The notes under the pieces: generated by a model | Told to the model about the DNA's origin: nothing | The model's input: the letters and a program-made list of their open reading frames with translations, nothing else | Databases searched by the model: none | Program-made: the position numbers and the translations under genes | Shown here: piece after piece, positions 9,495 through 29,824 of the stretch | How positions within the stretch are numbered: position 1 is the stretch's first letter | Layout of the letters: each line of letters opens with the position of its first letter | Virus record (IMG/VR): IMGVR_UViG_3300020582_000008 | Location: 287-64,286 of that record | Source: a virus | Taxonomy: Duplodnaviria > Caudoviricetes | Strand: one strand, 5' to 3' | Length of the DNA: 64,000 bases

Positions 9495-10300
9495 CCGACG
9501 CCCCAAGCCTCTCTGCCGGCCCAGCCGAAGAAGTCATAGCGAAGCGATCACGCTTTGTCGTGATGGCCGGCTGGAATGACGTTCCGCATCTTACCCCCGA
9601 AATGATTGCGGAAGAAAAATCCCGCATCCCACCCCACGAATTCGAAGCACGCTCACTCGGCAAACCATCCCTCGGCCAAGGCGCGGTCTACCCTGTTCCT
9701 GAATCCGAAATCCTTTGCGATCCGTTCATCGTCCCCGATTGGATGCCGCAGTGCTATGCGCTCGACGTGGGCTGGAAACGAACCGCCGCGCTGTGGGGAG
9801 CCTGGGACCGCGACAACGACGTGGTGTATCTGTACGGCGAACACTATCGCGGGCAGGCCGAACCTCCAATTCATGCCGCTGCGATCCGCGCTCGGGGCTT
9901 ATGGATTCCCGGAGTCATCGATCCCGCCGCGCAAGGCCGAGGCCAGAAAGACGGTGCACAACTGCTCACCATCTACCAGAATGATCTTGGCCTTAATCTC
10001 ACCCAAGCCGATAATGCGCTCGAAGCTGGGATCGTCGCGGTGTGGCAGAGACTCACAACGGGGCGGCTCAAAGTGTTTCGGACGCTGGTTAATTGGATCA
10101 AGGAATATAGGTTTTATCAGCGCGACGAACACGGGCGAATCAAAGACGGACAAGCCGATCACTTGATGGACGACACGCGCTATCTTATCATGTCCGGGTT
10201 AAGCGTTGCGTGCGTGCGGCCGGCCGATCAGTGGACTACGGGTAAATCACAAGTCGCATGGCAAGCGGAATATGACCCCCTCGCCTACCAAACCCGATGA
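9491..10300 (+). CDS. terL: terminase large subunit, lid + RNase H-like nuclease part
   Basis: WNDVPHL, EARSLGKPSLGQGAVYP, ALDVGW, DHLMDDTRY. Confidence 0.9.
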   Translation: MTDAPSLSAGPAEEVIAKRSRFVVMAGWNDVPHLTPEMIAEEKSRIPPHEFEARSLGKPSLGQGAVYPVPESEILCDPFIVPDWMPQCYALDVGWKRTAALWGAWDRDNDVVYLYGEHYRGQAEPPIHAAAIRARGLWIPGVIDPAAQGRGQKDGAQLLTIYQNDLGLNLTQADNALEAGIVAVWQRLTTGRLKVFRTLVNWIKEYRFYQRDEHGRIKDGQADHLMDDTRYLIMSGLSVACVRPADQWTTGKSQVAWQAEYDPLAYQTR

Positions 10301-10481
10301 AGAACAGGAACGGCGCGAGCGCGTGATTGCGTATATCATGCGGCGCGATCACGTGAGTCGCGAGACAGCAATCGAGGCGTTCAAGCGACTGCGCGGGCAT
10401 GAATTGTGGATGCTCGAACAGGCATTGAAACCGAAACAGCCGATGTTCACGGCTGAGTATGATCCGCTTGGGAGAAATTGA
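10272..10481 (+). CDS. small protein ending in the terminase C-terminal motif AEYDPL
   Basis: ORF fills the TerL-portal gap; shared hexapeptide. Confidence 0.6.
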   Translation: MTPSPTKPDEEQERRERVIAYIMRRDHVSRETAIEAFKRLRGHELWMLEQALKPKQPMFTAEYDPLGRN

Positions 10482-10696
10482 TGGGCTCGCTGCTTTCCCC
10501 TCCACAGATGACTCCACCCCCACCGCCGCCAATCCCGCCTGCGGCTATCCCGCCGACCATGGCCAACCCCGCCGTGCAACAGGCCGGCAAGAATCAGATT
10601 GGTAAGGCCGCGGCACTTGCGGATTCGACGGTCAAGACCAGCGCGGAGGGCGATCTTGTGAAGCCCATGACGACATCCTCGCAATTGCTGGGCTGA
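10481..10696 (+). CDS. small Pro-rich pre-portal protein
   Basis: GGAG RBS; MG...PPPP...LLG pattern typical of the gene before the portal in this phage group. Confidence 0.7.
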   Translation: MGSLLSPPQMTPPPPPPIPPAAIPPTMANPAVQQAGKNQIGKAAALADSTVKTSAEGDLVKPMTTSSQLLG

Positions 10697-10697
10697 C

Positions 10698-12542
10698 ATG
10701 GCCCTGACCGCAGAACGCGCCGAAGTCTATTACGAGAATGCAAGCGCGTCGTTACTTGCTCTCACTCCCGCGATCATCGACGGCAAGACTTGGCAATCGA
10801 ATCAGGATTGGGAGGACTTTCGGAATTATCTGGAACAAGTCCTCTTGGGAATGCGCAATTGGCGCACGCCGTGGTGGATGCATTGGGGCGAGATAGCCGC
10901 TCAGATGCTTCCGCGAAGATATTATTGGGTCATCACTCCCAACAACATGACCCGCGGTCTGCCGATCAATCAGAACGTGGTGGACTCGACAACCACGCAA
11001 GCAATCGGTGTTTGCGCCGCCGGCATGATGGACGGGTTATCTTCTCCTACGAAAATCTGGTTCAAGTTTGAAGCACCCGAAGGCATGGAGTTGGACACGG
11101 CGGGCAAACGCTGGCTTAATGACTTTCAAAAGGACACATACGACGTAATTTCTGGATCGAACTATTATGATCGAAAGCACCAATATTACGAGGATCAGAT
11201 AACATTTGGTACCGCGCCGATGTTGATTTACGAGAACAGAGAGCGGATCATCAATTGCGAAGTGCCGTGCGCGGGGGAGTATTTCGGGGCGTGCGGGTCG
11301 GATAATTCCATCGAGACATTCGACCGCGAATTTGTTCTAACCTGCGGGCAAATCGTGCAGCGGTTCGGACCTAAAGCCGTAGCTGGAACCAACGTCGCGG
11401 AGCTTTGGAATACCAAAGGAGCAAACCTCGAAACCGAATTCATCGTCGCACATTCCATCGAGCCGAACTTTCCGGCGAATCAGTACGGTCAGAAGCCGAG
11501 GCTTGGGGTTGTTCCGGGTGGTTATGCATATCGCGAAACCTACTGGTTGCGCGGTCTCAACACGCCGCAGCCTCTCTCGGTGCGAGGCTATCGCGAAAAG
11601 CCGTTCATGTATGCGCCTTGGACTCAGCGCTCGAACGATGCCTATGGGCGCGGGCTTGGTATGGATGCGCTGCCGGATTGCAGTCAGTTGAATCAGATGA
11701 CGCGGCGAGAAGCCGAGGCCATCGACAAGGGCGTGCGGCCTCCGATGCTTGCCGACGCGACGTTGAAGAACGAGCCGGCTTCGACGCTTCCCGGTAAAGT
11801 CACATACGTTCCGAACCTCGCACAGAACGCCGGCATGAAAGCCGCATACACGGTCGATCCGCGTTTTGTGGAATTCATCGAGCAGAAGATCGTGACGTTG
11901 CAGAAGCGAATCGAGCGATGGTTCGCCAACGATGTGTTCGAAATGATCTCGCAGATGGAGGGAGTTCAACCCCGCAACGAACTGGAATTGCAGGAGCGCC
12001 GCGGTGAGAAACTGTTGCGCCTTGGTCCGGTGATCGAGCGCAATCTTCGCGAGGATGCCGTTGGCTTGAGGCGCATCGTGTCGATCATGAATCGTCGTGG
12101 ATTGATTCCGCCCAAGCCCCAATCGCTCGCGGGCGTGCCGGTCCAACTGAAATTCGTGTCCAAGCTGGCGCTCATTCAACAGGCCGCTAAGACCGCCGGC
12201 ATGGAGCGCACTATCGTCATGGGCGGTCGCATGGAAGCCGTCCGCCCTGGCACGCTCGACGAAATCAACTTCCCGAAATACCTGCGGGATTATGGCGAAG
12301 CGGTCGAGTTTCCTCCCGAGGATTGGAACACCGACGCGGAAAAGAAGGCTTTGCAAACCGCGAGGGCACAGCAGCAACAGCAGGTCGCCCAGATGCACAC
12401 GGCTGAAAAAGTCACGCCGGCTCTTGCATCAGCGGCACAAAACCTGTCACAAACCGATACTGGCGGCGGTATGAATGCGCTGCAAATGCTGTTGGGTGGC
12501 GGCGGTACGGGTGCCCCACCCGCAGTGGAAGGCGGACAATGA
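10698..12542 (+). CDS. portal (head-tail connector) protein, BPP-1/T7-like
   Basis: AAGMMDGLSSPTKIWF, FGTAPM, YGRGLGMDALPD, LGPVIER; 614 aa. Confidence 0.92.
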   Translation: MALTAERAEVYYENASASLLALTPAIIDGKTWQSNQDWEDFRNYLEQVLLGMRNWRTPWWMHWGEIAAQMLPRRYYWVITPNNMTRGLPINQNVVDSTTTQAIGVCAAGMMDGLSSPTKIWFKFEAPEGMELDTAGKRWLNDFQKDTYDVISGSNYYDRKHQYYEDQITFGTAPMLIYENRERIINCEVPCAGEYFGACGSDNSIETFDREFVLTCGQIVQRFGPKAVAGTNVAELWNTKGANLETEFIVAHSIEPNFPANQYGQKPRLGVVPGGYAYRETYWLRGLNTPQPLSVRGYREKPFMYAPWTQRSNDAYGRGLGMDALPDCSQLNQMTRREAEAIDKGVRPPMLADATLKNEPASTLPGKVTYVPNLAQNAGMKAAYTVDPRFVEFIEQKIVTLQKRIERWFANDVFEMISQMEGVQPRNELELQERRGEKLLRLGPVIERNLREDAVGLRRIVSIMNRRGLIPPKPQSLAGVPVQLKFVSKLALIQQAAKTAGMERTIVMGGRMEAVRPGTLDEINFPKYLRDYGEAVEFPPEDWNTDAEKKALQTARAQQQQQVAQMHTAEKVTPALASAAQNLSQTDTGGGMNALQMLLGGGGTGAPPAVEGGQ

Positions 12543-14157: not shown

Positions 14158-14586
14158 ATGCTGATGCAGCCGAAGAAAGCCATGACTGATCTGCCGTACG
14201 GGGTGAATATCTCCGCGTTCGTACAGGACGGCAAAAGCCACATCCGCAAGGATGTGGATGACAAATTCCGCAGGATGTTGACCGAGGCCGCGGCGCGGCA
14301 GGCAAATTTCGCCGCTCGGTTCCACATCAGCAATGCGCTGCACAACGGCCCGTCGCGCGGTGGTGCTGCCGAATCGATCAAATTCTTCGGCTCCGAACTC
14401 GACGTAAAACTCCACCTGACCGCAGAAATCGTCGATGCCCTTGAAGTCTCCGCGCCTGGATTCAAAAAGTGGATGGAACTGACGGGTTTTGGCAACGACA
14501 AGACGATGATCCGGGGTTTTGTCGAGTGGGCTGAATTTCGGAACGGGCGCGGGAAGGTTATGACAAACTTAGCGGACATCAACTGA
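14158..14586 (+). CDS. hypothetical protein with a scaffold-like segment
   Basis: FKKWMELTGFGNDKTMIRGF resembles the TG.GN....IR.F segment of podoviral scaffolds. Confidence 0.55.
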   Translation: MLMQPKKAMTDLPYGVNISAFVQDGKSHIRKDVDDKFRRMLTEAAARQANFAARFHISNALHNGPSRGGAAESIKFFGSELDVKLHLTAEIVDALEVSAPGFKKWMELTGFGNDKTMIRGFVEWAEFRNGRGKVMTNLADIN

Positions 14587-14587: not shown

Positions 14588-14977
14588 GTGGCCGAACGCC
14601 AAGGCATCTACGACTCAACCGACCCTGCCGCCATCGACGCCGCAGCAAGCGCCGCCGCGCGCCGCGACCACGACGACGACGAAACAATCCGGGTATGGAT
14701 GAACCACCCCAAGGGGCGCGATCTTCTGTACCGCCATGTCTACGAAACTTGTCACCTAGGCCGGACCTTTGTTGCGGTCGATGAAAACGGCCATTCCGAC
14801 ACGCACCGGACCTATCTGGACCTCGGCGAAAGAAATATCGGTGCATGGTGGGACGAAAGGCTTCGCAGGCACGCAGAACTCTATATGCTGATGCTCAAGG
14901 AACAGGAAATCGACCGGCAAGCGCGCAACGCGCAGCTTCTAAAGCAGAACGACAAACAAGACAGCGGAAATGGCTGA
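14588..14977 (+). CDS. Bbp19-like head assembly protein
   Basis: WMNHPKGRDLL, GERNIG, ELYMLMLKE; lies between portal and scaffold. Confidence 0.7.
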   Translation: MAERQGIYDSTDPAAIDAAASAAARRDHDDDETIRVWMNHPKGRDLLYRHVYETCHLGRTFVAVDENGHSDTHRTYLDLGERNIGAWWDERLRRHAELYMLMLKEQEIDRQARNAQLLKQNDKQDSGNG

Positions 14978-15890
14978 TAAAGACGCAAAACCCGAGCCTG
15001 TTGCCGCCGTTCCTGCGGAGACGAAAGTTACCGATTCGGTCGCGCTCCCCGCGTCGCCTTTGGCAACTGCCGATTCGGCCAATCACGAAGGCGCAGCACC
15101 CGCTGCGGAAGTCAAACCTGAGACAAAGCCGAACGGCCACGATGTAACTGCCGAAGCGAAGCCGGCCGCTGAGACGAAGCCCGAGACCAAACCAGATTCA
15201 GCGTCGGAGACCAAGCCCGATGCAACAAAGCCCGCCACGGAAAGTGGCGAGACCAAGCCGCCCGCAGAAGTGAAGGCTGAGACCAAGCCCGAAGGTGAGG
15301 TCAAGCCTGAGACGAAGCCGGCGGATACCAAGGAAGCCCCGGAAGCAACGCCGCAGGCCCCTCCTGTTTACGAAGCGTTGAAACTCCCCGACACGGTGAA
15401 GTTGGACAAGGATCGCGTCGCGAAATTCGACGAGATTATCGGCAAAACCGAACTGTCCACCAAAGGCGATCACGCCGCAATGACTGCTATGCGGCAGGAT
15501 TTAGCCAATCTCTATGTCGAGGAAGTCAATCGCATCGGACAACAGGTCGCAAAGCACCAGCATGACGTGTGGAATAGACTTGTCGAGCAGCGGGTCAACG
15601 AACTCAAATCGGACCCACAGCTAGGCGGCAACCGCATCGAAACAACGCTGGGTAACGCTAAGTACGCTCTGGAAACCATGGTGGGATTGTCGAAAGACGA
15701 AGCCACCACTTTGATCGCCGTCATGGACGCAGGTGGGGTTTCTCACCATCGTTTGATGATCAAGGCGCTCAATGGAATCTACGAGCTTTTGCGCGAGCCT
15801 GAACCCGTTCCCGGAACCCTGCCTCTCAACGCAACGACCTCGAAGGAACCCGGCCAGCGTGGCTGGTACGATTCGGTCGCCAAGACGTAG
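14970..15890 (+). CDS. capsid scaffolding protein
   Basis: Low-complexity E-T-K-P repeats, LKSDPQLGG, C-terminal RGWYD; lies before the MCP. Confidence 0.8.
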   Translation: MADKDAKPEPVAAVPAETKVTDSVALPASPLATADSANHEGAAPAAEVKPETKPNGHDVTAEAKPAAETKPETKPDSASETKPDATKPATESGETKPPAEVKAETKPEGEVKPETKPADTKEAPEATPQAPPVYEALKLPDTVKLDKDRVAKFDEIIGKTELSTKGDHAAMTAMRQDLANLYVEEVNRIGQQVAKHQHDVWNRLVEQRVNELKSDPQLGGNRIETTLGNAKYALETMVGLSKDEATTLIAVMDAGGVSHHRLMIKALNGIYELLREPEPVPGTLPLNATTSKEPGQRGWYDSVAKT

Positions 15891-15920
15891 AGAAGGCCAA
15901 GTTTGAAAGGCTTCTAGCCC

Positions 15921-16955
15921 ATGGCTTCCTTGACCCTGGCCGATGTCGGCCGTCGCATGGACCCTGGCGGCAAAATCGCCGACATGGCCGAACTGATGTC
16001 TCAATGCAACGAGATCGACGAGGATGCCCCGCTCGTAAAAGGCAATCTCACAACCGGCCACGTTGCCACGCTCCGAACCGCTCTGCCGAAGGGCACTCTT
16101 CGACGCTTCAATCAAGGCGTCGGCTACACCAAATCCTCGGCTGCGCAGATCACGTTCGGCATGGCGATGCTGGACGCCTATTCGCAGATCGACAAAAGAC
16201 TCGCCGATCTTGGTGGAAACACCAACGCCAACCGCGAGAAAGAGGACGTGGCCCACATGGAGGGCATGTCCCAGCAGTGGACTGGCTTCCTCGTTTATGG
16301 AAATGCTTGGACCACTCCCGAACAGTTCTCCGGTTTTTCAACCTACTTCTCCGCAATCGCCAATACACCGAACGGCGTCAATGTGTTCGACGCTGGGGGA
16401 ACTGGTTCCTCAAATACCTCGATCTGGCTCATCGGCTGGGGCGACCAGACGGTTTACGAGATTTACCCGGATGGTACGAAAGCCGGGCTGATCTTCGAGA
16501 ACAAAGGTGATGTTGTCCCGGCGTTCACATCGAACGGCACGGCCCGGTACGAAGCCTATACGTCCTACTTCTCGCGTAACGGCGGTCTCGCTATCGAGGA
16601 CTGGCGCTATGTGATTCGCATGGCGAACTTCGATACCACGACCGCAGGGCTTGCTGGTCCTACTCCCCCGGACATCTTTGCGATCATGTCGAAGTCGGTT
16701 GTTCGTCTGCCGACGGCAGGGCGGATGGTTTCCGGCATCGTCAAGACCGACGCACCGGATCGCGTCGCTCCTTCGATCCGCCTGAAATTCTACTGCGACC
16801 GTACCGCGCGGGAGTACATGGACATCCAGGCGATCCGGGATAAGAACGTGCTGCTTCGGCCCGAGGATTACGCCGGCCGTCCGATTGTGAATTTCCGCAA
16901 TATCGCAATCGGTGTGGTCGATCAGATTCTCGATACCGAAAGCCGCGTGGTCTAA
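15921..16955 (+). CDS. major capsid protein (BPP-1 Bbp17 / epsilon15 gp7-like, HK97 fold)
   Basis: TLAD, RTALP...RRFNQG, EDWRYVIRMAN, FRNIAI...DQILDTESRVV. Confidence 0.92.
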   Translation: MASLTLADVGRRMDPGGKIADMAELMSQCNEIDEDAPLVKGNLTTGHVATLRTALPKGTLRRFNQGVGYTKSSAAQITFGMAMLDAYSQIDKRLADLGGNTNANREKEDVAHMEGMSQQWTGFLVYGNAWTTPEQFSGFSTYFSAIANTPNGVNVFDAGGTGSSNTSIWLIGWGDQTVYEIYPDGTKAGLIFENKGDVVPAFTSNGTARYEAYTSYFSRNGGLAIEDWRYVIRMANFDTTTAGLAGPTPPDIFAIMSKSVVRLPTAGRMVSGIVKTDAPDRVAPSIRLKFYCDRTAREYMDIQAIRDKNVLLRPEDYAGRPIVNFRNIAIGVVDQILDTESRVV

Positions 16956-16986
16956 GCGCAACCTCAATAGGAAAGGAGAGCACCCG

Positions 16987-17547
16987 ATGGGTATGCTCGA
17001 TCTGGCACTACAGTTCTCCAATGCGCAGGCCATCACGGCTACCGCACAATCGACCAACTTCTACGACCAGTTGACCGGGCAAAGCCTGACGACGACTTAT
17101 ACGCCGTCGCCTTCGGCTATCTTCTCGGTCAACGAAACCTACTTCGGCGAGGACTTGGGCATCGGCAAGGGCGAAGGCACGCCGCGTGTCGTGGTCAATG
17201 TCGGGACTGTTTTCGCAACTCTCACGTCGTTGCAGATTCAGTTCCAAGGCGCCCCGGAAAACGCGACCTCGCACGCCTCGGGTAATCGGTCGGATTTGAC
17301 GTTCGTCACCTATATCCAAACCGACACCATCGCCGCGGCTCTGCTCACGGCAAATACCCGAATCGCCGCTTTCGATTGGCCGATGCGCAAGACCGGCCAG
17401 GCGCTGCCGCGTTTCGTGCAGTTGAACTATGTGGTCGCCGGATCGAACGCAACGACTGGCACGATTACGTCGGATGTGACGCTGGGCGACGACGACGCAC
17501 AAACGACGCTCGCGTTCTACGGCAGTAATTATAAGGTTGCGTCCTAA
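16987..17547 (+). CDS. Bbp16-like capsid cement protein
   Basis: LDLALQFSNAQAITATAQST, PRFVQLNYVV; AGGAG RBS; follows the MCP. Confidence 0.8.
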   Translation: MGMLDLALQFSNAQAITATAQSTNFYDQLTGQSLTTTYTPSPSAIFSVNETYFGEDLGIGKGEGTPRVVVNVGTVFATLTSLQIQFQGAPENATSHASGNRSDLTFVTYIQTDTIAAALLTANTRIAAFDWPMRKTGQALPRFVQLNYVVAGSNATTGTITSDVTLGDDDAQTTLAFYGSNYKVAS

Positions 17548-21054: not shown

Positions 21055-21983
21055 TGTGGCGTGTCGCTCTTGCGGTTTGGCTGACGGCGGCACTCTCGCT
21101 GTTCGCGTTCAACGCGCCGCGGGCGCAGTTCAACGGCTGTCAGGCTGGATTTTGTAGTCCGCCATCCTCTGCGGCAGCCGCATATGTTGGCCCCGGCGAC
21201 ATCACGTCAGGCGCCATCGCATTCTATTCCTGTAGTCGAGCTTACAACGCAGCCTATGCAAGCGGCCTTAATGCCGCTTGCGACGTAGTCGATACCGCTA
21301 CAGGTCTTGTCACGGGAACGATGCACTTTCTCTCTACCGGCTTTGTAAACGTCAACGAACTGACCGGCGTTGGGCAAGCCTGCCACGCCGCGTGCAGCGT
21401 CACGAAGATGTACGACCAGACCGGCACCGGCAATCATGTGGTACAGGCGACGCTCGCCAATATGCCGGCGCTGACGTTCAATGCACAGAATGGATTGCCG
21501 TGCGCGGCGGGTGGAGCGAATAGTCCGCGCTTAGTCACAGCCGGAAATATAACGCAAGCCGCACCATTTACGATGACAGCAGTAACCGAGCGCGGTAGCG
21601 GATTTACGACTCTTCAAAATATACAAAACAATGGAAATCTTAACATCCTTCGGTTTCCGGCGGTGGCAAATCAGGTAAGCGCTGTGTCTGGGACAGCCAG
21701 TACATTAACTGCAACTGATAGTGCTTTTCATGCGTTGCTGGCGGTGGTTAGCGCGACAGCCCCTTTATTTGCTGCCGATAGCAGCGCAAACACAAGCACA
21801 GCAACGTTTGGAACCTCTGCAATGGCCTCTACCGAAGCTATTGTCGGAAGGTCTGGCGGTCAGGGGCCAATACTTGCTGGTGGTTTCGTCTGCGAAGCCG
21901 GTATCTGGCCCGCCGATCTCAACTCATCCTATCAAGCCATGCTCGCCAATATGCGCAGCGCGACCAATGGGTGGAATTTCTAG
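21051..21983 (+). CDS. LamG/arabinofuranosidase-B-like head-fibre or receptor-binding protein with signal peptide
   Basis: AIAFYS..RAY and VTKMYDQTGTGNH motifs; hydrophobic leader ending PRA-Q. Confidence 0.6.
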   Translation: MMWRVALAVWLTAALSLFAFNAPRAQFNGCQAGFCSPPSSAAAAYVGPGDITSGAIAFYSCSRAYNAAYASGLNAACDVVDTATGLVTGTMHFLSTGFVNVNELTGVGQACHAACSVTKMYDQTGTGNHVVQATLANMPALTFNAQNGLPCAAGGANSPRLVTAGNITQAAPFTMTAVTERGSGFTTLQNIQNNGNLNILRFPAVANQVSAVSGTASTLTATDSAFHALLAVVSATAPLFAADSSANTSTATFGTSAMASTEAIVGRSGGQGPILAGGFVCEAGIWPADLNSSYQAMLANMRSATNGWNF

Positions 21984-21985
21984 CA

Positions 21986-22174
21986 ATGCCATGGAAATCC
22001 GGCAAAGCCTTCGCCTCGAAGCACAACAAGAAACTGAAAGGTGAAGCCGCAACCACGGCGAAGAATCAAGCCGAGGCGATGATTAAAAAAGGGATTCCCG
22101 AGGGAGAAGCCATCGCGACAGCGAATAAAACGGGGAATCGAATTGAAGCCCGACAAAAACGCTGGTATGGATAA
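21986..22174 (+). CDS. small basic protein (MPW... family) ending RWYG
   Basis: MPW start, GIPEGEAIATA; TAATG coupling. Confidence 0.65.
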   Translation: MPWKSGKAFASKHNKKLKGEAATTAKNQAEAMIKKGIPEGEAIATANKTGNRIEARQKRWYG

Positions 22175-22440
22175 TGGCCTCGTTAACGCTCGCCGACATG
22201 GCAAGACGGATGGTGCCGGGAGCTAAGGCCGTGGCGAAGAAACACTGGATCAAGGGCGCGATCAAACATCCCGGCAGAGAGACGCGCCGCGCCAAGGAAC
22301 ATGGCGTCTCTACCCACGAGCAGATGGAAAGCGACAGCCACAGCAAGAACAAGTCGCTCGCCGCCGCCGGCCGCCTCGGGCTGGCGTTATCGGCGAAAAG
22401 CAAGAAACCCCGCGGCGAACGCTGGTATGGAAAGGACTGA
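22174..22440 (+). CDS. small basic protein with a capsid-like N-terminus and RWYG tail
   Basis: 14 of the first 18 residues match the MCP; WIKGAIKHPG motif. Confidence 0.7.
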   Translation: MASLTLADMARRMVPGAKAVAKKHWIKGAIKHPGRETRRAKEHGVSTHEQMESDSHSKNKSLAAAGRLGLALSAKSKKPRGERWYGKD

Positions 22441-22442: not shown

Positions 22443-22730
22443 ATGGCCGAACGCAAATGGTACGGCAAAGAGGGCGGCGGCGGGGAAGGGACTCACGAAC
22501 GCCATTCCCGCGAGCGCAAGGAAATGCACACGCGGCATTCCAAGATGCGCGATGCGCTCCACAAGCAGCACGAGGACGAGATTGGCCAGATGGCCGAACG
22601 GCAGTCTCAGGAGGCGGCGACCGAGAATCAAGGAGCGCAGGCGCCGGCTGCCGCAGCGGCTCCCGCAGCAGCGGCGCCAGCGGGTCAGGGAGCCGCTGCG
22701 GCAGCAACCGGCGCAGGGGCGCCAGCATGA
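22443..22730 (+). CDS. small His/Ala-rich protein with N-terminal KWYG
   Basis: AAGGA RBS. Confidence 0.65.
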   Translation: MAERKWYGKEGGGGEGTHERHSRERKEMHTRHSKMRDALHKQHEDEIGQMAERQSQEAATENQGAQAPAAAAAPAAAAPAGQGAAAAATGAGAPA

Positions 22731-23339: not shown

Positions 23340-23969
23340 ATGCCGCAGAGAATCCGCCTACTCACTTCCGCACAGATCAACGGGCACGTTTACGGTCCCG
23401 GCGAAGTCGTCACGCTGCCCGACGGCGTTCGTGGTCCTCATCGTTCCGTGTCCGTTGCGGGTGTACTCCAAGACGAACCGATGTTCGTTCCGGTCGATGA
23501 AGGATTGGAGAAAGAGCGCGAGGACATGCGCTTGCGGCATCTGGCCGAAGTGGAAGCCCTCGATCATACCGCCGAGCGTCGCGAACTGGCGATCAAACAC
23601 GCCAAGGAATCATCCGATCTTCGTCGCAAGCAATTGGCGAGTGAGACCGAGGCGCGGCACAAGGTCGAAGCTGAGACGTTGCAGCGCCGGCAGGAGGCCG
23701 AAGTCGTCGCCTTCGACAAACGCGCCGAAGTTCTGGCGACCGTCAATCCGCCGTCCGAGACCAACAAGGACGATCTTGCGGCGCGGCACAAGGCGGAAGC
23801 CGAGGCACTGAAAGTCAAGCAGGAGAGTGAGCAGAAGGCGATTGAAGCCGCAAACGCGGAGCCTGTCGAGGATGAGCCGGTAGAGGCGCAGCCGGAAGAT
23901 GATGCCGCGCCTCTGATGCCGCCGCCGGATTATCCGCCGCCGCCAAGTCAACCGAGCAATCCGGCGTAA
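23340..23969 (+). CDS. coiled-coil protein with RH..E repeats
   Basis: AGGAGG RBS; repeated ARHKxEAE. Confidence 0.7.
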   Translation: MPQRIRLLTSAQINGHVYGPGEVVTLPDGVRGPHRSVSVAGVLQDEPMFVPVDEGLEKEREDMRLRHLAEVEALDHTAERRELAIKHAKESSDLRRKQLASETEARHKVEAETLQRRQEAEVVAFDKRAEVLATVNPPSETNKDDLAARHKAEAEALKVKQESEQKAIEAANAEPVEDEPVEAQPEDDAAPLMPPPDYPPPPSQPSNPA

Positions 23970-24005
23970 TGCTCTTGGCGATGACGATGCGGCGGGAGGC
24001 GGCGG

Positions 24006-24797
24006 ATGGACGACGTAACGATTGCGAATATCGCCTTGGACAACATAGGCGCTCGCATGTCCATTACGTCGTTGCAGCCACCACTTCCGCCGCCGAACGC
24101 AATAGTTGTTGCGCGCCAATATCAGATTCGGATTGACGCGCTTCATCGTAGCGCGCATTGGAATTTTGCCCGTTTCCAAAAAAAAGGAATTATCCTAAAA
24201 GCTGCGCAAGGCACACCTGAAAATCCCAACGGCACAACGCTGCCGATTCCTCCGTATCCCTGGCAGTATGCCTACGCTTACCCCCCAGATTGTTTGCTTG
24301 CGCGTTATCTTCTCTGCAATCAACCCCTGACCGGAAGCGGCAACCCTTTTCCTGCGGGAGTCCAAACAACGCCGCTGTGGCCGTTCGGAAATCCCGGTTA
24401 TAAGTTTGTGGTAGCAAACGACACGGATGCGGCCGGCAACCAAATAAAAGTCATCCTGACCGATTTGGAATTTGCGGATATTGTTTATACCGGCCGCGTG
24501 ACAAATCCTGATCTTTGGGATGCTCATTTTCAGAATGGCGCTATTGCAACTCTTGGCGCATGGCTGGTCAATCCGCTCGCTCGCAATGCGATAGTCCTCA
24601 AAGAGCAAATCGAGATTGCAACGTCGGTCGTGCAGTCAGCGCGAATCTCGGATGGCAACGAGGGAATTACTTCCATTGATCACACGCCAGATTGGATGGC
24701 GGTCAGAGGAATAACCGGCTACGGTCTTGCTTGGGATTCGGCGATGACTTACTATGGCTGGTCGAGTTTGGGATTTCCTGGCGGCGGGTTTGTTTGA
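24006..24797 (+). CDS. tail tubular protein A / head-tail adaptor
   Basis: IANIALDNIG, HWNFA, WQYAYAYPPDCL. Confidence 0.85.
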   Translation: MDDVTIANIALDNIGARMSITSLQPPLPPPNAIVVARQYQIRIDALHRSAHWNFARFQKKGIILKAAQGTPENPNGTTLPIPPYPWQYAYAYPPDCLLARYLLCNQPLTGSGNPFPAGVQTTPLWPFGNPGYKFVVANDTDAAGNQIKVILTDLEFADIVYTGRVTNPDLWDAHFQNGAIATLGAWLVNPLARNAIVLKEQIEIATSVVQSARISDGNEGITSIDHTPDWMAVRGITGYGLAWDSAMTYYGWSSLGFPGGGFV

Positions 24798-27700
24798 ATG
24801 ACAACGCCGATCATGCATTCGTCGTTTTCAAGCGGCGAAGTGTCGCCGTCATTATATGGTCGTGTAGATTTAGCCGGGTGGCACAAAGCCTGTTCGGTCG
24901 CGCGGAATTTCTTTGTTTCTTATAAAGGTGGATTGCTGAGCCGCGGTGGTCTCGCCTACGTCGGCATCTGTAAACAATCTGCATCCGCCAATTCCGTTCC
25001 GCCGCGAAATATCCCGTTCACATTCAATATTTTTCAATCGTACATTCTGGAATTTGGCGAACAATATATGCGCGTGGTCGCCAATGGCGGCTATGTCACG
25101 GAGACGGCTTTTGCGGTCACAGGAGCGACCCAGGCCAATCCTTGTATGCTGAATATTCCCGGCAATAATTATGTCGTTGGCGACTGGATTTTTCTTATCA
25201 ATCTCGGCGGCATGATTCAGTTGGATGCGCGCACAGTGATCGTGCGGAATGTCGCAGGTAGCGCCGTCACGATCCAAGACGTGTTCGGCGTGCCAATCAA
25301 TTCTCTGGCCTATGGGGCTTACACGACCGGCGGAACGGCAGCGCGAATCTATACGCTAACAACGCCGTATCACGCTGTCGATTTATCTTATCTGAAATTC
25401 ATTCAAAGCGCCGATACGATGTCGCTGACTTGCGTCAACCAGGCGACGCAAGCCGAATATCCGCCCCAGGAATTGAGCCGTTTAGCAGCTAATAATTGGA
25501 CGATTGGACCGCCGTCCTTTGCTGCTTCGATTGCTGCGCCGGGCAGTTGCGCAGTCGCTGGAACGACCTATGCGACCGGGCCGGGGCCGGCAGCTTACGG
25601 TTATGTGGTTACCTCAATCGACAGCCAGACAGGCGATGAAAGTCAACCGTCCCCTGTCGGCGTGACGACCGGCGTTGTCGATATAGCGGGGCAGTTCGGG
25701 ACTAATACGGTGACTTGGGCGGCGGTGCCAGGCGCTTCAAGTTACAATGTCTATAGGGCCGCTCCGGATTATACGAATGTCGGTAATTTCTCGGGACAGT
25801 TGTTTGGTTATGTCGGGTCGTCGCGGTCAAATTCGTGGCAGGATACCAATGTCATCGCGGACTTTGCGACCACGCCTCCGCTACACACGAATCCGTTTGC
25901 CGCCGGACAGATTCTCGATATTCCGATGACGAACATCGGCGCAAATTATACCGCGGCGACCGCGAGTCTCACGATCAATAGTGCCACGGGTTCGGGATTT
26001 GTGGGTACTCCCATCATCGGTGGGGCTATCACTGGCCAGAGGATTACATTTGCGGCTAATCCGTTTCTGAATGGTGCGAGAGTCAGTCAGCAAGTCGGTG
26101 CTGCTACTGCCCAAGGTCTTGTTGTGGCCGTGAGTGCTACGACAATTGACGTACAATTGCTTGGCAGTCAGCAATTCCAGGGCGGGGGTGGGGGATTTGG
26201 TTCTTCTCCCGTGGTGGATACTTCGGCGAACAGTGCGGTCCCAACCAACACGCAACTGATAACGCTCACGGGAAGCGGCGGTTGGATCGGGACCTTCATC
26301 GAGAATCCAGGCAAGGGTTATTTGCCGACAGATACTCCAATCTTTGCCGATAGTGGAAGCGGAGCGGGTGCGACAGGACAGTTAACAGTCGGGCCGGAAT
26401 CGGGCACATTCCCCGGTGTTGCAGCATATTTCCAACAGCGCCGCGTCTATGCGGATTCGATTGTTGCTCCCGATACCTACGAAATGTCCCAGCCCGGTTC
26501 GTATCTCAATTTCGATTCGGCCGATCCTCCAATCGATTCGGATTCGATCACGGGGACACCTTGGGGAGAACAGATCGACGGCATTCAGTGGATGCGGCCG
26601 ATGCCGGGAGGTCTCGTTACTTTTACGGGCGGAACGACGTGGCAGGTGTCTGGAACGGCCGGTGCGGGGTCTCCGATCACTCCATCACAACAGAATGCGC
26701 AAGCGCAGGAAGGTATCGGGTCCTCTCCCACAATTGCTCCGATCCGAATCCGAAATAATTTGCTCTACGTCGATTCTCTGAATGGTTTTGTGAACGAGAT
26801 AAATTACAATTTTTATTTCAACATCTACACGGGGCAGGATATTACGCTGCTGTCGAGTCAACTTTTTCAGAACAATAATCTTGTGCAATGGGCGCTGTCT
26901 TTCAGTCCATATCGTTTGATCTGGGCCGTTCGTAACGATGGCAAGATGCTCTCTCTAACCTACATCGCCGAACAGGAAATGCGCGGCTGGGCGCGGCACG
27001 ATACGTTGGGTTTGTTTGCTTCCGTCGCGGTTGCTTCCGAACCTCCGGTCAATGCGGCTTATTTTATCGTCAAGCGATATGTGACGGGAAAAGGCCAGTG
27101 GGTTTACATGCAGGAGCGTATGGACAATCGGCTGTGGCAGAATGTCGAGCAGTCGTATTGTCTTGATAGTGCGCTGTCTCTTGCGCAGCCCGCGCCGAAC
27201 GCAAACCTTGTGGCCTCTGCGGCGCGGGGCACAGGTGGTGTGAAGCTTGGGGCGGTCATTCTTGGGGGTAGTGGATATTCAGCGGGGCCTGCCGGACAGA
27301 TTGTAGATGATGCCGGGACCGGAACGGGTGCGGTCGTTACCGGTTTTACTGTTGTCGCGGGCGCGATCACGAATCTAGCGATCACCCCCGGCGTTAATTA
27401 TCAGTTGCCGCGAATCATCATCACGGACGCCACGGGCGCTGGAGCGGATATTTCTTTGGTGGTCGATAATACTGTCACCTTCACGGCGGATGGTGCCGTA
27501 TTCTCGTCGGCCAATAACGGCTCCGTGCTGCGCGTGGGCGGGGGCATCGGAACGAACGTCGCTTATCAGTCTCCGACCCAAATAACCGCACAGGTGGCGC
27601 CGCAGGCGGCGATTGCGGCCACGCTGGCAAACGATCCGCTCAATATGCCGGTTCCGGCTGCGGCAGGGACTTGGACTCTGACGGCTCCAGTGACGGCCAT

Positions 27701-28244
27701 CCTTGGTCTTGAACATTTGGAAGGGATGACGGTCAATGCGCTGTGTGACGGGACGCCGGTCGTGGGGCTTGTGGTGGTGAATGGCTCTGTGATGCTGCCG
27801 AATCCTGCAAGCCAAGTGCTCATCGGCCTGCTTTTCATTGCGCAGGCGCAGTCGATGCACGCCGACATGCCGGGCGAGTTGATCCAAGGCAAACGCAAGA
27901 GGATTCAGGGCGTGACGGTCAGACTGGCAAATACCCGTGGCATCAAGCTCGGGCAGGATCAGCCGATTGCAGCCCAACAGCCGAATCAGATCGAGATTCC
28001 GTGGGATCAAGCGCCGAATCTTATGACGGCACTTACGGAGCCGAATGCTCTGGCGGGCGCAGGAAACGCCGTGCCGTTGTTCTCAGGCGATAAATACGTG
28101 GTGATCGCAGGCGATTACTCGACAACCAATGGTCAAGCCTCTCCGGGCATGGTAGCGGTGGAGCAAGATTTGCCTCTGCCGGCTGAAATCCTTGCCTTCA
28201 TCCCCGAATTGGAAGTCGGCGACACAGGCGACCAACATGCTTAG
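24798..28244 (+). CDS. tail tubular protein B / nozzle with inserted domains
   Basis: SFSSGEVSPSLYGRVDL, FQQRRV, WARHDT, GLEHLEG, QDLPLP. Confidence 0.9.
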   Translation: MTTPIMHSSFSSGEVSPSLYGRVDLAGWHKACSVARNFFVSYKGGLLSRGGLAYVGICKQSASANSVPPRNIPFTFNIFQSYILEFGEQYMRVVANGGYVTETAFAVTGATQANPCMLNIPGNNYVVGDWIFLINLGGMIQLDARTVIVRNVAGSAVTIQDVFGVPINSLAYGAYTTGGTAARIYTLTTPYHAVDLSYLKFIQSADTMSLTCVNQATQAEYPPQELSRLAANNWTIGPPSFAASIAAPGSCAVAGTTYATGPGPAAYGYVVTSIDSQTGDESQPSPVGVTTGVVDIAGQFGTNTVTWAAVPGASSYNVYRAAPDYTNVGNFSGQLFGYVGSSRSNSWQDTNVIADFATTPPLHTNPFAAGQILDIPMTNIGANYTAATASLTINSATGSGFVGTPIIGGAITGQRITFAANPFLNGARVSQQVGAATAQGLVVAVSATTIDVQLLGSQQFQGGGGGFGSSPVVDTSANSAVPTNTQLITLTGSGGWIGTFIENPGKGYLPTDTPIFADSGSGAGATGQLTVGPESGTFPGVAAYFQQRRVYADSIVAPDTYEMSQPGSYLNFDSADPPIDSDSITGTPWGEQIDGIQWMRPMPGGLVTFTGGTTWQVSGTAGAGSPITPSQQNAQAQEGIGSSPTIAPIRIRNNLLYVDSLNGFVNEINYNFYFNIYTGQDITLLSSQLFQNNNLVQWALSFSPYRLIWAVRNDGKMLSLTYIAEQEMRGWARHDTLGLFASVAVASEPPVNAAYFIVKRYVTGKGQWVYMQERMDNRLWQNVEQSYCLDSALSLAQPAPNANLVASAARGTGGVKLGAVILGGSGYSAGPAGQIVDDAGTGTGAVVTGFTVVAGAITNLAITPGVNYQLPRIIITDATGAGADISLVVDNTVTFTADGAVFSSANNGSVLRVGGGIGTNVAYQSPTQITAQVAPQAAIAATLANDPLNMPVPAAAGTWTLTAPVTAILGLEHLEGMTVNALCDGTPVVGLVVVNGSVMLPNPASQVLIGLLFIAQAQSMHADMPGELIQGKRKRIQGVTVRLANTRGIKLGQDQPIAAQQPNQIEIPWDQAPNLMTALTEPNALAGAGNAVPLFSGDKYVVIAGDYSTTNGQASPGMVAVEQDLPLPAEILAFIPELEVGDTGDQHA

Positions 28245-28773
28245 CATGAACGGCCACGGTCTCGCGAAAGTACCGCTCGACTTAGAGCCTATGCTGCGTG
28301 GCTACTCTATCGAGCCAACCGAAGTCGGCCACATCTACAAACTGGCCGATTCTCTCCGCGACCAAGATCGAACGGAGATTCTAAATCTCGGATTTGGCGT
28401 CAAGAAAGCCCTGTGGAGAGCCTATCGTAACTCGATCATGTGCAAGACGGCGTTGGTGGCTGACAAGGTTGCGGCGATTTGGGGGTTGGGAATAGGTTTG
28501 CGTGCGGGTGTGAGTCCTTTGTCCGATCTTGGTGTGCCGTGGTTGCATACGTCGGCTGCTATTGAATCTGTTCCTTTCTCATTTGTGCGAGTAGCGAAAG
28601 CAGAGTTGGCAGCTATGTTGAAGTTAAGGCCACGACTTGAATCGTTTGTGGCTGCTGACTATGCGCAGGCGATCAAGTTTCTTCGGATTTTGGGCTTTGC
28701 TGTGGAAAAACCGGAAGCGGTTGGGTTGAATGGTGCGCTGTATTGTAGGTTTCATATGGGCTTTGACGCTTAA
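28237..28773 (+). CDS. GNAT-like internal virion/tail assembly protein (T7 gp13-like)
   Basis: LRDQDRTEI, GVPWL, AIKFLRILGF; follows the nozzle. Confidence 0.75.
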   Translation: MLSMNGHGLAKVPLDLEPMLRGYSIEPTEVGHIYKLADSLRDQDRTEILNLGFGVKKALWRAYRNSIMCKTALVADKVAAIWGLGIGLRAGVSPLSDLGVPWLHTSAAIESVPFSFVRVAKAELAAMLKLRPRLESFVAADYAQAIKFLRILGFAVEKPEAVGLNGALYCRFHMGFDA

Positions 28774-28777
28774 GCAA

Positions 28778-28836
28778 TTGGTTAGACTGGCTACCTTGGC
28801 GTGCGATTATTCTGTGAGAGTCTTACGGCCATAGAG
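28778..28836 (+). repeat. 59-bp element copy 5 (solo, left-type)
   Basis: ttggttagactggctaccttggcgtgcgattattctgtgagagtcttacggccatagag, followed by gattgagaaaaaagatc-ATG. Confidence 0.95.
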
Positions 28837-28853
28837 GATTGAGAAAAAAGATC

Positions 28854-29378
28854 ATGGGTGCGGCACTTCTTCCGGTTATGTTGGTCGCGGGCGTCGCGGG
28901 CGCCGGATTGTCTGCGGCCGGCACTTACGGATCGATGGAGGCGGCTTCCAAGAATGCGGCCTACCAAGCGCAAGTCGCGGCCAATAATGCAACCATCGCT
29001 ATGAAAAACGCTGCGATGGACACGCAGTCGGGGGAGATCGCGGCGTCGAATCAGGGACTCAAGACACGCGCGGCGGTCGGCAAGACCTTGGCGCAGCAAG
29101 GGGCGTCCGGGGTTGACGTGAATACCGGCTCCGCTCCCAAAGTACGCGCGGCAGAAAGCGAACTCGGCGCGCTTGACGCGATGACGATTCGCTCCAACGC
29201 GGCCAAGAAGGCATATTCCGACACGGTTGCGGCGACGAGCGACACGGCGGAATCCCAATTGCTCACGTCGGAGTCGGATCAGGCCGCGACTGCGGCGCCA
29301 ATCTCCGCACTCGGAAATTTCCTGGGCTCGGCATCGAGCGTTGGCGGCAACTTCGGTAAAGCAATGGCGACGGGTTGA
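28854..29378 (+). CDS. small ejection (internal virion) protein
   Basis: Ala-rich; GASGVDVNTGS and DAMTIRSN motifs. Confidence 0.8.
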   Translation: MGAALLPVMLVAGVAGAGLSAAGTYGSMEAASKNAAYQAQVAANNATIAMKNAAMDTQSGEIAASNQGLKTRAAVGKTLAQQGASGVDVNTGSAPKVRAAESELGALDAMTIRSNAAKKAYSDTVAATSDTAESQLLTSESDQAATAAPISALGNFLGSASSVGGNFGKAMATG

Positions 29379-29380
29379 CC

Positions 29381-29824
29381 ATGAACCTAAATAGGCGCAG
29401 TTTTTTCATCGGCGCGGCGGCAGGTTTGCTTGCTTCATCTGTCGTGTCAGCATCAAGCCTAATGTCGCTACGCCCCGGCTTTTCCGGACATTGGTTGCGA
29501 CAACAAATCTTTTTGAAAGAGAAAGATGGGGATGTATGGCGCACCATAGACCGGATTGATTGTTCTGGTCTTGAAGGCGCTGAGCCGCCAGATGTTTTTG
29601 CGATGATGGCGAGAAGCGTTATTAAATTGCCGCCGCAAAAATTGAGAATTGCCCCGGAACGCTGGGGGCTTGATGTTGTGAAAATGATTAAATTTGAAAC
29701 CACGCTAGAGGTTAGACAACATATGGAAATGCAGGCAATTCGCAGCCGAAATGTTCTAGTGAGAACTATTGGGGATAATACACCTGTCCCTTGTGCGTTC
29801 CGCGGTATAGCAATCGAATCGTGA
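29381..29824 (+). CDS. twin-arginine-signal protein carrying a diverged copy of the MCP C-terminal region
   Basis: NRRSFF + hydrophobic leader; three colinear blocks match the MCP. Confidence 0.75.
   Translation: MNLNRRSFFIGAAAGLLASSVVSASSLMSLRPGFSGHWLRQQIFLKEKDGDVWRTIDRIDCSGLEGAEPPDVFAMMARSVIKLPPQKLRIAPERWGLDVVKMIKFETTLEVRQHMEMQAIRSRNVLVRTIGDNTPVPCAFRGIAIES

Follow-up and report, generated by a model that had tools for sequence, protein, structure and literature searches.

Why would a phage carry, on separate small genes, pieces of the proteins from which it builds its own head? The question is raised by the window analysed here (the whole stretch of DNA, 64,000 nucleotides), which holds a complete epsilon15/BPP-1-like phage of 64 kb from soil. 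An earlier note had singled out four of its small genes as mimics of the phage's terminase, scaffold and capsid proteins, and had read them as a deliberate repertoire of assembly-protein pieces. Three of the four cases (the TerL tail and the genes at 22174 and 29381) are borne out, with pieces that are selected and not accidental; the fourth, at 14158, is not. The pattern is also broader than the note proposed. Judging from the sequences, the phage keeps small genes on which short stretches of its terminase, scaffold-position protein and capsid protein are reproduced; these copies are old, are held by selection and, for the most part, vary together with their core-protein originals among related phages.

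Materials and Methods

The window was compared with itself by all-against-all BLASTP of its 274 plus-strand ORFs of at least 40 aa, and pairs were scored by Smith-Waterman alignment, each against 300 shuffles. Orthologue checks used 10 fetched relatives, and 45 sources were scanned for tails. IMG/VR classes the relatives G005, G009 and G017 as proviruses.

Results

Self-Matches in the Window

Two self-match pairs stand out in the window BLASTP, the next best E-value being 0.005, which is noise. When scored against shuffled controls, as the earlier note had suggested, the two pairs involving the major capsid protein (MCP) are clearly separated from chance (z 22.1 and z 9.4), whereas the TerL tail (z 1.8) and the gene at 14158 (z -1.0) are not. 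The latter, described as a scaffold-like segment, copies nothing in the window: in its comparison with the scaffold-position protein (14970-15890), 269 of 300 shuffles reach its score, and it is an ordinary gene. The repeated WYG motifs are genuine and can be read at the ends of several ORFs. The expectation that mimics would also be found in relatives, following their cognate core proteins, holds for the TerL tail, the scaffold-position tail and 22174, which co-vary or recur there. The genes concerned are listed in Table 1.

Table 1. Genes of the window considered in this work, with their positions and the matches or motifs that identify them.
Feature	Position	Strand	Identification
TerL C-terminal (nuclease) ORF	9491..10300	+	Pfam Terminase_6C, PHROG 5653
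69-aa gene between TerL and portal, ending AEYDPLGRN	10272..10481	+	TerL-tail copy, AEYDPL at 10452-10469
Portal protein	10698..12542	+	Pfam Head-tail_con, 322 bits; in 10/10 fetched relatives at 40-98% identity
Gene claimed as "scaffold-like", an ordinary conserved gene	14158..14586	+	Orthologues in 9/10 fetched relatives
Scaffold-position protein, directly upstream of MCP	14970..15890	+	PHROG 458
MCP, GP7/Bbp17 type	15921..16955	+	Pfam GP7, 306 bits; PDB 3j4u, E 2e-59; 3j40, E 9e-54
Bbp16-like cement protein	16987..17547	+	Pfam Bbp16; start chosen by comparison with orthologues
Small basic protein ending RQKRWYG	21971..22174	+	Orthologues in G001, G002
88-aa basic protein	22174..22440	+	N-terminus MASLTLADMARRMVPG copies first 16 MCP residues; C-terminus RGERWYGKD
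95-aa protein starting MAERKWYGK (motif N-terminal)	22443..22730	+	Motif read in sequence
epsilon15 gp10-like protein ending RRSRFYGSTDTKAA	22887..23282	+	Pfam PF21628, 43.3 bits (threshold 27)
147-aa protein, Tat-signal-like leader (MNLNRRSFFIG...VVSASSLMSLRP) and diverged copy of MCP 228-330	29381..29824	+	

A TerL Tail on a Small Gene

The last 11 residues of the TerL ORF read AEYDPLAYQTR, and the hexapeptide AEYDPL (in TerL at 10265-10282) is common to the C-termini of TerL and of the small gene that lies between TerL and the portal gene, with five of its six codons differing synonymously. No Pfam or PHROG family matched this small gene. Within the window alone the pair (9491-10300 against 10272-10481) is not significant, its score being reached by 16 of 300 shuffles, and the significance of the copy proposed at 10272 comes instead from relatives. 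A tail pair of the form [E/D]YDP[L/C/F/Y], on TerL and on a small ORF, is present in 14 of the 45 scanned sources, or 13 distinct pairs (L011 duplicates G004), and three further sources carry the tail on TerL alone. The residue that follows YDP is identical in 11 of the 13 pairs (L/L in eight, and C/C, F/F and Y/Y) and mismatched in two (Y/F and I/L); permutation of the labels gives p 0.0004, in a test that ignores the relatedness of the records. On TerL the tail forms the very C-terminal end and is found with two kinds of TerL body that give no alignment with each other; an [E/D]YDP tail is also carried by the TerL of epsilon15, phiV10 and BPP-1. All these tail-bearing phages have a portal family in common.

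The Capsid N-Terminus in Gene 22174

Two pieces of the MCP are copied elsewhere in the window: residues 1-18 (15921-15974) and residues 228-330 (16602-16910). The first recurs as residues 1-18 of ORF 22174-22440 at 78% identity (E 3e-4), with a pair score (z 9.4) that none of 300 shuffles reaches, which confirms the capsid N-terminal copy proposed there. Only three of the 14 identical residues use the same codon in both genes, and comparison of 22174 with its homologue in G002 yields 16 synonymous and two non-synonymous codon differences; on these sequences, gene 22174 is under purifying selection. A capsid N-terminal copy gene was found in five of the 45 sources, and in the homologues of 22174 both ends are invariant, the middle varying in sequence and length. 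These genomes are mosaic: the capsid protein of G001 is identical to that of the window, and its 22174 homologue is only 52% identical.

The Scaffold-Position Tail and RWYG Proteins

The scaffold-position protein, relatives of which bear the annotation 'protease', has the tail QRGWYDSVAKT (15855-15887), and related motifs end or begin several small proteins encoded between 21971 and 23282. The first of these probably starts at an ATG near 21986. Nine of the fetched relatives have a capsid protein with 65% or more identity to that of the window, and all nine have the 95-aa protein. The gp10-like gene passes the gathering score of its family, and its tail, RRSRFYGSTDTKAA, is a variant with F replacing W.

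Among sources with an MCP at least 65% identical, WY is present in the scaffold-position tail of 28 out of 29. Among 13 more distant sources, 11 have one and the same residue (L, M, R or F) ahead of Y in the scaffold-position protein and in the small-protein tails; of the remaining two, one shows a mismatch and one is without such a small ORF. Across clades this residue hence changes in step, through W, L, M, R and F. Named phages show the same pairing: EVLYGK and ETLYGNGGE in phiV10, gp6 ending SAFYPKK and gp10 ending DAFYPDGEDD in epsilon15, and RRLYAAS (Bbp18) and QRLYGAS (Bbp20) in BPP-1. As in known cargo tags, a short terminal peptide is common to the scaffold-position protein and to several unrelated small proteins. 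In G000, however, the gp10-like tail has F whereas the scaffold-position protein has W, which counts against a tag.

A Leader Family Joined to Capsid Pieces

The MCP C-terminal region with a Tat leader, as described for 29381, was recovered. Residues 228-330 of the MCP match residues 55-147 of ORF 29375-29824 at 34% identity (E 7e-12), with a score (z 22.1) that 0 of 300 shuffles reach. The gene was also considered as a GP7/Bbp17-type MCP (PF20911, full HK97 fold), and this was rejected: it aligns only to MCP residues 228-330 and has no Pfam match. By sequence it is the copy of a fragment and not itself a capsid protein. It sits within the internal-virion-protein (ejection) operon, and no such gene is present at the same site in any of the 10 fetched relatives.

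Its leader, MNLNRRSFFIGAAAGLLASSVVSASS, follows the N-terminal Tat pattern of an S/T-R-R-x-F-L-K-like motif, 13-20 weakly hydrophobic residues and a small-x-small site: it has the twin-arginine motif NRRSFFIG, a segment of weak hydrophobicity and the sequence VSASS; leader homologues in G002 and G010 have SRRGF/SRRGI. Curated models score it low. The 29381 protein has no Pfam match at E up to 5; its only NCBIfam match is to TIGR02811, where its 13 bits fall short of the 48.45-bit threshold. Relatives reach 14.7-15.5 bits with PF10518 (22.7 needed) and 12.7-13.2 with TIGR01409 (16.7 needed).

From its sequence, 29381 is a divergent member of a large leader family that has the consensus xRRxFLxGL..AAPAIVRASS and comprises 8,483 cluster representatives when E is limited to 0.001, or 1,366 when it is limited to 1e-10. 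Ten other complete phages contain 11 leader genes; in five of these the variable part is a copy of the major head protein of the same phage, across three unrelated capsid families, and no capsid copy is detectable in the other six. The capsid pieces used differ by phage (N-terminal, internal or C-terminal), and in G002 and G010 the copy tracks residues of the cognate capsid protein that are particular to the lineage. Conservation of the leader is confined to the protein level, and the variable part is hypervariable. The genes belong to late operons for head and packaging proteins; the gene is patchy and changes place among close relatives. The nearest named protein-atlas clusters are Tat-signal proteins (scores 0.85-0.89). 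The family is absent from PHROGs for the 10 members scanned, one member used as query gave no leader match in 50,697 GenBank phage records, and literature text searches found no description of it.

Discussion

That the pieces carried by these small genes are selected is indicated by synonymous divergence with residues kept, by co-variation with the cognate proteins and by the 16 versus 2 codon differences in 22174. The possibility that they are functionless, either recombination leftovers of mosaic phages or chance matches of short motifs, is already disfavoured and appears very improbable. The case at 14158 is indeed a chance one, the TerL hexapeptide is not significant in a single genome, and the genomes are mosaic, as G001 shows. 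Yet residues are kept while synonymous sites are scrambled, non-synonymous changes are few in 22174, pieces co-vary with their cognates in many records, and one architecture is found again and again with capsid proteins of three unrelated families.

The explanation that we favour, with a probability of about one half, is that the small genes carry docking peptides of core assembly proteins and, because they carry the same peptides, would use or compete for the same docking sites. Since the tails are short, the case for docking rests on position and on co-variation among related records, which share ancestry. Of the three functions put forward earlier (decoys, interference with competitors and address tags), address tags fit the two tail classes best: these tails stand at the extreme ends of proteins that have to dock on the portal or to enter the procapsid, they persist even where the remainder of the protein has been replaced, and one tail-bearing small protein, epsilon15 gp10, is a virion protein.

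At the portal, [E/D]YDP[L/C/F/Y] would be the portal-docking tail of TerL. In P22 (PMC5290284), the C-terminal tail of TerL is required for binding the procapsid portal, and the adaptor gp4 also puts a C-terminal tail into the portal. By analogy with P22, T3 and lambda (PMC5290284), we infer that TerL binds the procapsid portal through its tail, the window's portal protein being the docking partner of the [E/D]YDP tails. The small protein whose gene lies between those for TerL and portal has the same tail and may bind the same portal site, occupying it before packaging or succeeding TerL once TerL leaves. As in P22, T3 and lambda, an extreme C-terminal TerL tail is kept together with the portal family and, as with P22 gp4, a second protein would use a C-terminal tail on the portal. 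In P22, however, the two tails differ in sequence, whereas here TerL and the small protein have the same, co-varying motif, and the small protein, unlike gp4, belongs to no known family.

Inside the head, the tail formed by a basic residue, x, [W/L/M/R/F], Y and G may be the hold of the scaffold-position protein on the procapsid interior, and the small basic proteins that bear it, the gp10-like one included, would then enter the head as cargo. Short targeting or loading peptides are known from T4 internal proteins (the capsid targeting sequence), the HK97 prohead protease (its C-terminal targeting part), the P22 scaffold C-terminus and encapsulin cargo. The likeness lies in a short terminal peptide found on a scaffold or core protein and on unrelated small proteins, and in the presumed role of bringing proteins into an HK97-fold shell. 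The putative loading tag described here differs in being C-terminal, a basic stretch followed by [W/L/M/R/F]-Y-G, in co-varying with the scaffold-position tail across a supergroup that includes epsilon15 and BPP-1, and in that one tagged protein also bears a copy of the capsid N-terminus. In epsilon15, gp10 is detected in virions by proteomics, and the 'staple' density fits a protein other than gp10 (PMC9207676). According to the BPP-1 structure (PMC3863775), the capsid protein keeps its N-terminus, which lies on the outer side of the shell, and the N-terminal peptide has the cement protein as partner. Gene 22174 adds a copy of the corresponding peptide, with no sign of cleavage or of a protease; its two ends point to different places, because the capsid N-terminus is external in BPP-1 and a scaffold-like tail is expected to be internal.

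Docking tags account neither for a putative export of a capsid piece nor for the six of 11 leader genes without a capsid copy, and it is mainly for the leader-plus-capsid-piece gene that decoy and interference remain live. A decoy, in which the copied epitope soaks up a host defence that senses capsid, terminase or portal, and in which the leader could in addition pull that sensor towards the membrane or into the Tat pathway, would account for a hypervariable part behind a leader conserved only as protein, for capsid pieces that differ among phages, for patchy and shifting gene positions and for the tracking of cognate residues in G002 and G010; from its late operon, the copy would be made together with the capsid protein. 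A plain epitope copy, however, is expected to trigger an abortive-infection sensor rather than block it, and the genes with TerL and RWYG tails are conserved, core-like and fixed in position, unlike typical arms-race genes; we regard a decoy as unlikely. Still less probable is a weapon against superinfecting relatives or satellites, whose fragments would poison a rival's capsid assembly or packaging and whose exported pieces would bind the rival's ejected internal proteins in the periplasm. The provirus class of some relatives, the export-like leader and the location of 29381 among ejection protein genes agree with it, but copies that follow the phage's own protein would hit its own assembly too, the genes lie within late operons with overlapping stop and start codons and without promoters of their own, and different capsid pieces in each phage fit a single periplasmic target poorly.

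What the leader does may be approached through Tat signal peptides, with which it shares an N-terminal RR-x-F, a segment of weak hydrophobicity with many G, A and P residues and a small-x-small site, and export is predicted. It differs from them in being far more conserved than a signal needs (AAPAIVRASSLMPV), with conservation running past the putative cleavage site, in scoring below curated HMM thresholds, and in heading phage proteins of very small size that often carry, as their variable part, a segment of the capsid protein of the same phage. Partner proteins can be carried along by Tat 'hitchhiker' export; the leader might likewise send the capsid piece, possibly with its binder, to the membrane or periplasm. 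We tentatively suggest, as a possibility well short of an even chance, that the interfaces used in their own assembly are turned by phages, in a systematic way, into portable peptides, and that the leader family is a widespread bait-plus-leader device that relocates or removes the binder of the bait, be it a host capsid sensor or free capsid subunits.

Novelty lies in the leader-plus-capsid-piece family and in the capsid N-terminal copy, the two tail classes being variants of targeting tags and portal-docking tails. The TerL tail on a small protein hints that this protein either regulates the terminase at the portal or follows it there. The scaffold-position tail on gp10 and Bbp20 is testable in the culturable phages epsilon15, phiV10 and BPP-1; if it is a loading tag, it would explain the location of the 'orphan' virion protein gp10 and provide a natural cargo-loading peptide for HK97-fold capsids. 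Lastly, the leader-plus-capsid-piece family is a common, unstudied part of phage biology and, should the bait-plus-leader suggestion be true, it would represent a new kind of counter-defence or an assembly-sensing checkpoint.

Results

Genome context and relatives

The window covers almost fully an IMG/VR virus record of 64,286 bases that CheckV rates as complete, and all of its long open reading frames (ORFs) lie on the plus strand. Its capsid protein matches the solved structures of BPP-1 (3j4u, E 2e-59) and epsilon15 (3j40), and with this protein as query 44 related viral loci were found, with capsid identities ranging from 100% down to 46%. The relatives analysed in full were ten near-complete records (G001-G010). 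A search of genome contigs for a host gave a sole match, to one Pseudomonadota MAG contig, which is too thin to name the host. Contigs from two soil RNA libraries, a source that can also contain DNA, match the head genes of the window (14700-20000 and 23000-25300) at a level of at least 99% and leave the small genes uncovered, and diverged relatives are present in DNA runs from two other soil studies.

Features of the window discussed in the text
Feature	Position	Strand	Remarks
TerS	7938-8561	+	
TerL ATPase ORF	8371-9276	+	split TerL
71-aa ORF	9279-9494	+	tightly packed between TerL ATPase and nuclease ORFs
TerL nuclease ORF (TerL-C)	9491-10300	+	split TerL
Small tail gene (gene 10272)	10272-10481		69 aa
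Portal	10698-12542	+	Head-tail_con family
Scaffold-position protein	14970-15890		
Major capsid protein	15921-16955	+	GP7/Bbp17 family, Pfam 306 bits
Bbp16-like cement protein	16987-17547	+	after capsid gene
Gene 22174	22174-22440	+	capsid residues 1-18
epsilon15 gp10-like protein	22887-23282	+	
Internal virion protein genes	28192-38544	+	one with lysozyme domain
Gene 29381	29375-29824 (ORF)	+	capsid residues 228-330

An intergenic repeat about 69 nt long, whose copies are 86-100% alike, occurs at 442-510, 4465-4533, 28778-28846 and 59174-59243, with inverted copies at 850-925, 5561-5636 and 59500-59575; one copy lies just upstream of the internal virion protein genes that hold gene 29381, and the repeat may be a promoter or terminator. 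Three ORFs of the structural region (18300-19613, 20521-21054 and 21018-21983) have signal-peptide-like N-termini, two of them with AQF right behind the hydrophobic stretch; they gave no Pfam or PHROG family and are variable among relatives.

Capsid segments in small genes

An earlier note had proposed that small genes at 10272, 14158, 22174 and 29381 carry fragments of the phage's own assembly proteins, and had pointed to repeated WYG motifs, which were found where it placed them. All-against-all BLASTP of the 274 plus-strand ORFs of the window gave two pairs clear of noise, the capsid protein with the ORF of gene 29381 (E 7e-12) and with gene 22174 (E 3e-4), the third-ranked pair having an E value of 0.005. 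Against 300 shuffles these two pairs reached z scores of 22.1 and 9.4, and both capsid pieces are significant within the genome. The TerL-tail case at 10272 reached z 1.8 and was judged only through relatives, and the scaffold-like identity of gene 14158 (z -1.0) was rejected.

In 5 of the 45 sources, all with capsid identity of at least 82%, there is a small protein whose N-terminus has the pattern MASLTLADxARRxxPG. The capsid-like start and an R.ERWYG segment are invariant in these five proteins (51-90 aa), the middle varies in sequence and length, and more distant relatives have a homologous 22174 body without the capsid-like start. A comparison of gene 22174 between the window and the relative G002 gave 16 synonymous codon differences and 2 non-synonymous ones. 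An origin by recent DNA duplication, or by capture of the capsid translation start, was rejected because the DNA upstream of gene 22174 and of the capsid gene is unrelated and nearly all third codon positions differ, the same codon being used at only 3 of 14 identical residues. The available text on BPP-1 describes pairing, on the capsid exterior, of the capsid N-terminal peptide with cement-protein strand C (PMC3863775), and that on a Xanthomonas relative describes an N-arm touching the cement protein at its base (bioRxiv 10.64898/2026.02.16.706137); by analogy with these contacts, the copy in gene 22174 may therefore bind the cement protein. A complex prediction for the two proteins, made without controls, gave scores of 0.00 and 0.00 and is neutral as evidence.

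In gene 29381 a twin-arginine leader precedes a diverged version of capsid residues 228-330. An orthologue at this site is absent in all ten relatives, and a homologue search among proteins of 80-258 aa recovered the 29381 protein itself only. Leader genes of SRRG type are found in two of these relatives: that of G002, located between two TerL ORFs, is 61% identical to residues 282-330 of its own capsid protein, and that of G010, directly behind TerL, is 72% identical to its own capsid residues 295-333. Each copy holds residues specific to the capsid lineage of its own phage, and differs in codon from its own capsid gene at about half of the identical residues. The best conserved copied part corresponds to the loop at the capsomer centre in the available descriptions of BPP-1 and the Xanthomonas phage. 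Close homologues of the G002 leader gene came up in a search limited to small proteins, as did two proteins that have the same leader and other capsid pieces, resembling residues around 50-70 and around 300-320; DNA orthologues of the G002 gene sought for dN/dS were identical copies only. Leaderless small ORFs with capsid pieces were seen at two related loci (L009:12928-13161 and L013:5247-5684), one piece resembling capsid residues around 226-243 and the other residues around 240-335, the latter similar to the C-terminal part of 29381.

The leader family at large

Searches with the leader gave 222 confirmed stretches from 561 pattern matches in metagenomes, 81 from 134 in viral contigs and, among 1.84 billion cluster representatives, 8,483 at E ≤0.001 and 1,366 at E ≤1e-10. 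The best 150 of the 8,483 representatives are all 50-193 aa long, and the leader match begins at one of residues 1-8 in 143 cases and no later than residue 32 in the other 7. The consensus is xRRxFLxGL..AAPAIVRASSLMPV(K/R), with a core whose invariance is partly ascertainment, since the search pattern fixed part of it. Across 74 distinct leader copies the codon is shared at only 33% of identical residues, and serines are encoded by both AGC and TCG. Tat HMMs matched leader proteins below their thresholds, the protein-atlas clusters nearest to them that carry a name are those of Tat-signal proteins, and none of the 10 leader proteins scanned gave a PHROG match. The usual location of leader genes is in head and packaging operons.

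Ten further complete phage records hold 11 leader genes, and 5 of these (in 4 records) have a variable part that matches a protein from their own record, with E values from 8e-5 to 4e-19. All four matched target proteins are major head proteins, three of PHROG 283 and one of PHROG 371. The remaining 6 leader genes had no significant same-record match, including both from capsid relatives of the window (G017; G019, E 0.27). In G011 the leader genes are a tandem pair that draws on one capsid protein, with an N-terminal piece in one gene and a C-terminal plus an internal piece in the other. At the locus L180 the leader gene, which sits between those for scaffold and capsid, contains a copy of capsid residues 24-81 (z 29); when its product was compared with 50,697 GenBank phage records, the variable part alone gave matches, all to coat proteins. 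A scan of the flanks (3-4 kb around 132 distinct leader genes) added 4 capsid-copy cases, and one leader protein gives an above-threshold Pfam GP7 match to model positions 7-55. Some phages have two leader genes, arranged in tandem in L099, G011/L184, L214 and L219 and separated by about 0.9 kb in L211; the paired genes of L099, like those of G011, hold different pieces of one capsid protein.

Tails shared with TerL and the scaffold-position protein

TerL-C ends in AEYDPLAYQTR and the product of gene 10272 in AEYDPLGRN, with a synonymous difference in 5 of the 6 common tail codons. A scan of 45 sources for YDP at most 10 residues from the stop found 14 records (13 distinct pairs, one record being a duplicate) in which both TerL and a small ORF located between TerL and portal have the tail, 3 more with the tail on TerL alone, and one unrelated alternative-frame match in the window, which is noise. 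The residue after YDP is identical in 11 of the 13 pairs (L/L in eight, and C/C, F/F and Y/Y), the mismatched pairs being Y/F and I/L; label permutation of this agreement, which ignores the relatedness of the records, gave p 0.0004. The tail is retained on both TerL body types of the family, which show no alignment to one another, and characterised TerL proteins end in TEYDPWK (epsilon15), TDYDPYA (phiV10) and LDYDPYARM (BPP-1); these three phages have no small gene with TerL's YDP tail. A single portal family is common to all phages with a YDP-tailed TerL, epsilon15, phiV10 and BPP-1 included. In P22, according to the available text of PMC5290284, TerL lacking its C-terminal tail no longer binds procapsid portal, an effect that had been reported for T3 and lambda before. 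The same text describes the adaptor gp4 of P22 as having a C-terminal tail of its own that is inserted into the portal. By analogy with P22, we infer that the YDP tail is the portal-docking peptide of TerL, and that the small YDP-tailed protein would dock at the same portal site.

In 9 records TerL-C is an ORF of its own, 248-291 aa long, and Rfam at gathering thresholds over the whole window gave no family that would indicate an intron in the split gene. In G003 (record of L010), two consecutive small ORFs behind TerL (oriented 44830-45147 and 45175-45375) each end in DYDPCRSK, TerL itself ending in EYDPCQTK, and the tail-bearing small gene appears to be duplicated. Another small ORF of G003 (oriented 16191-16412) resembles residues 519-544 of its own portal over residues 1-26 (46% identity, E 3e-4) and looks non-coding beyond them; it may be a copied portal piece. 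In epsilon15 (gp3, L093 3037-3243) and BPP-1 (Bbp22, L095 bbp22), the small proteins whose genes separate TerL from portal have a common C-terminal tail, ...TLLGQ, whereas the family of the window carries the TerL tail at the same gene position.

The scaffold-position protein, so named because its gene directly precedes that of the capsid protein, matches PHROG 458 and is called 'protease' in annotations of relatives. It ends in ...RGWY... in 28 of 29 sources with capsid identity of at least 65%, the one exception having a different ORF at this position. Small basic proteins of several unrelated body types, encoded in a cluster downstream of the capsid gene in the same clade, end in basic-x-(R/K)WYG, and the gp10-like protein of the window ends in RRSRFYG. 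In more distant relatives the residue before Y in the scaffold-position tail is L, M, R or F, and small-protein tails match it in 11 of the 13 sources scanned, the exceptions being one mismatch (M vs L) and one source without such an ORF. Characterised phages follow this agreement as well: the scaffold-position protein of phiV10 ends in EVLYGK and its gp10-like protein in ETLYGNGGE; the corresponding tails are SAFYPKK (gp6) and DAFYPDGEDD (gp10) in epsilon15, and RRLYAASNMNP (Bbp18) and QRLYGASSMSA (Bbp20) in BPP-1. The available text of PMC9207676 reports that epsilon15 gp10 was detected in virions by proteomics, and that the outer 'staple' density is better accounted for by a 130-aa Bbp16-like protein. 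With no ordered place in the shell, gp10 would then look as expected for an internally loaded virion protein. A putative gene of the window at 51334-51750, far from the head genes, ends in ...VAKWYNAE, with WY 5 residues from the stop.

Discussion

The peptides copied into these small genes are real, old and selected, and most of them track their cognates, in co-variation counts that are uncorrected for shared ancestry. We infer that they are docking peptides, in which case pieces of capsid protein should bind the partners of that capsid segment. For the N-terminal piece this partner would be the cement protein, and the central-loop and other pieces would bind a sensor or adjacent subunits. 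Leader-family proteins would additionally direct the capsid piece to the Tat pathway or the membrane.

Several functions can be considered for the leader family. Its proteins could serve as bait against defences that sense capsid, as a checkpoint in assembly or lysis, or as a means of excluding rival phages. Bait is ranked first, above both the checkpoint and rival exclusion, because of the hypervariable part of these proteins, their patchy distribution and the late co-expression expected of them. In PMC13581612 the term 'decoy' refers to mass-spectrometry databases. Searches of open-access text gave no account of terminase or scaffold tails common to small proteins, of a copy of the capsid N-terminus on a tagged protein, or of a family combining a Tat leader with a fragment of the phage's own capsid protein.

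Both tail classes are best read as address tags. The YDP tail would address its carrier to the TerL site on the portal, and the WYG-type tail to the binding site of the scaffold-position protein inside the procapsid. Peptides of both kinds, terminal targeting tags and portal-docking tails, are already known, and the two tail classes of this phage family would be variations on them.
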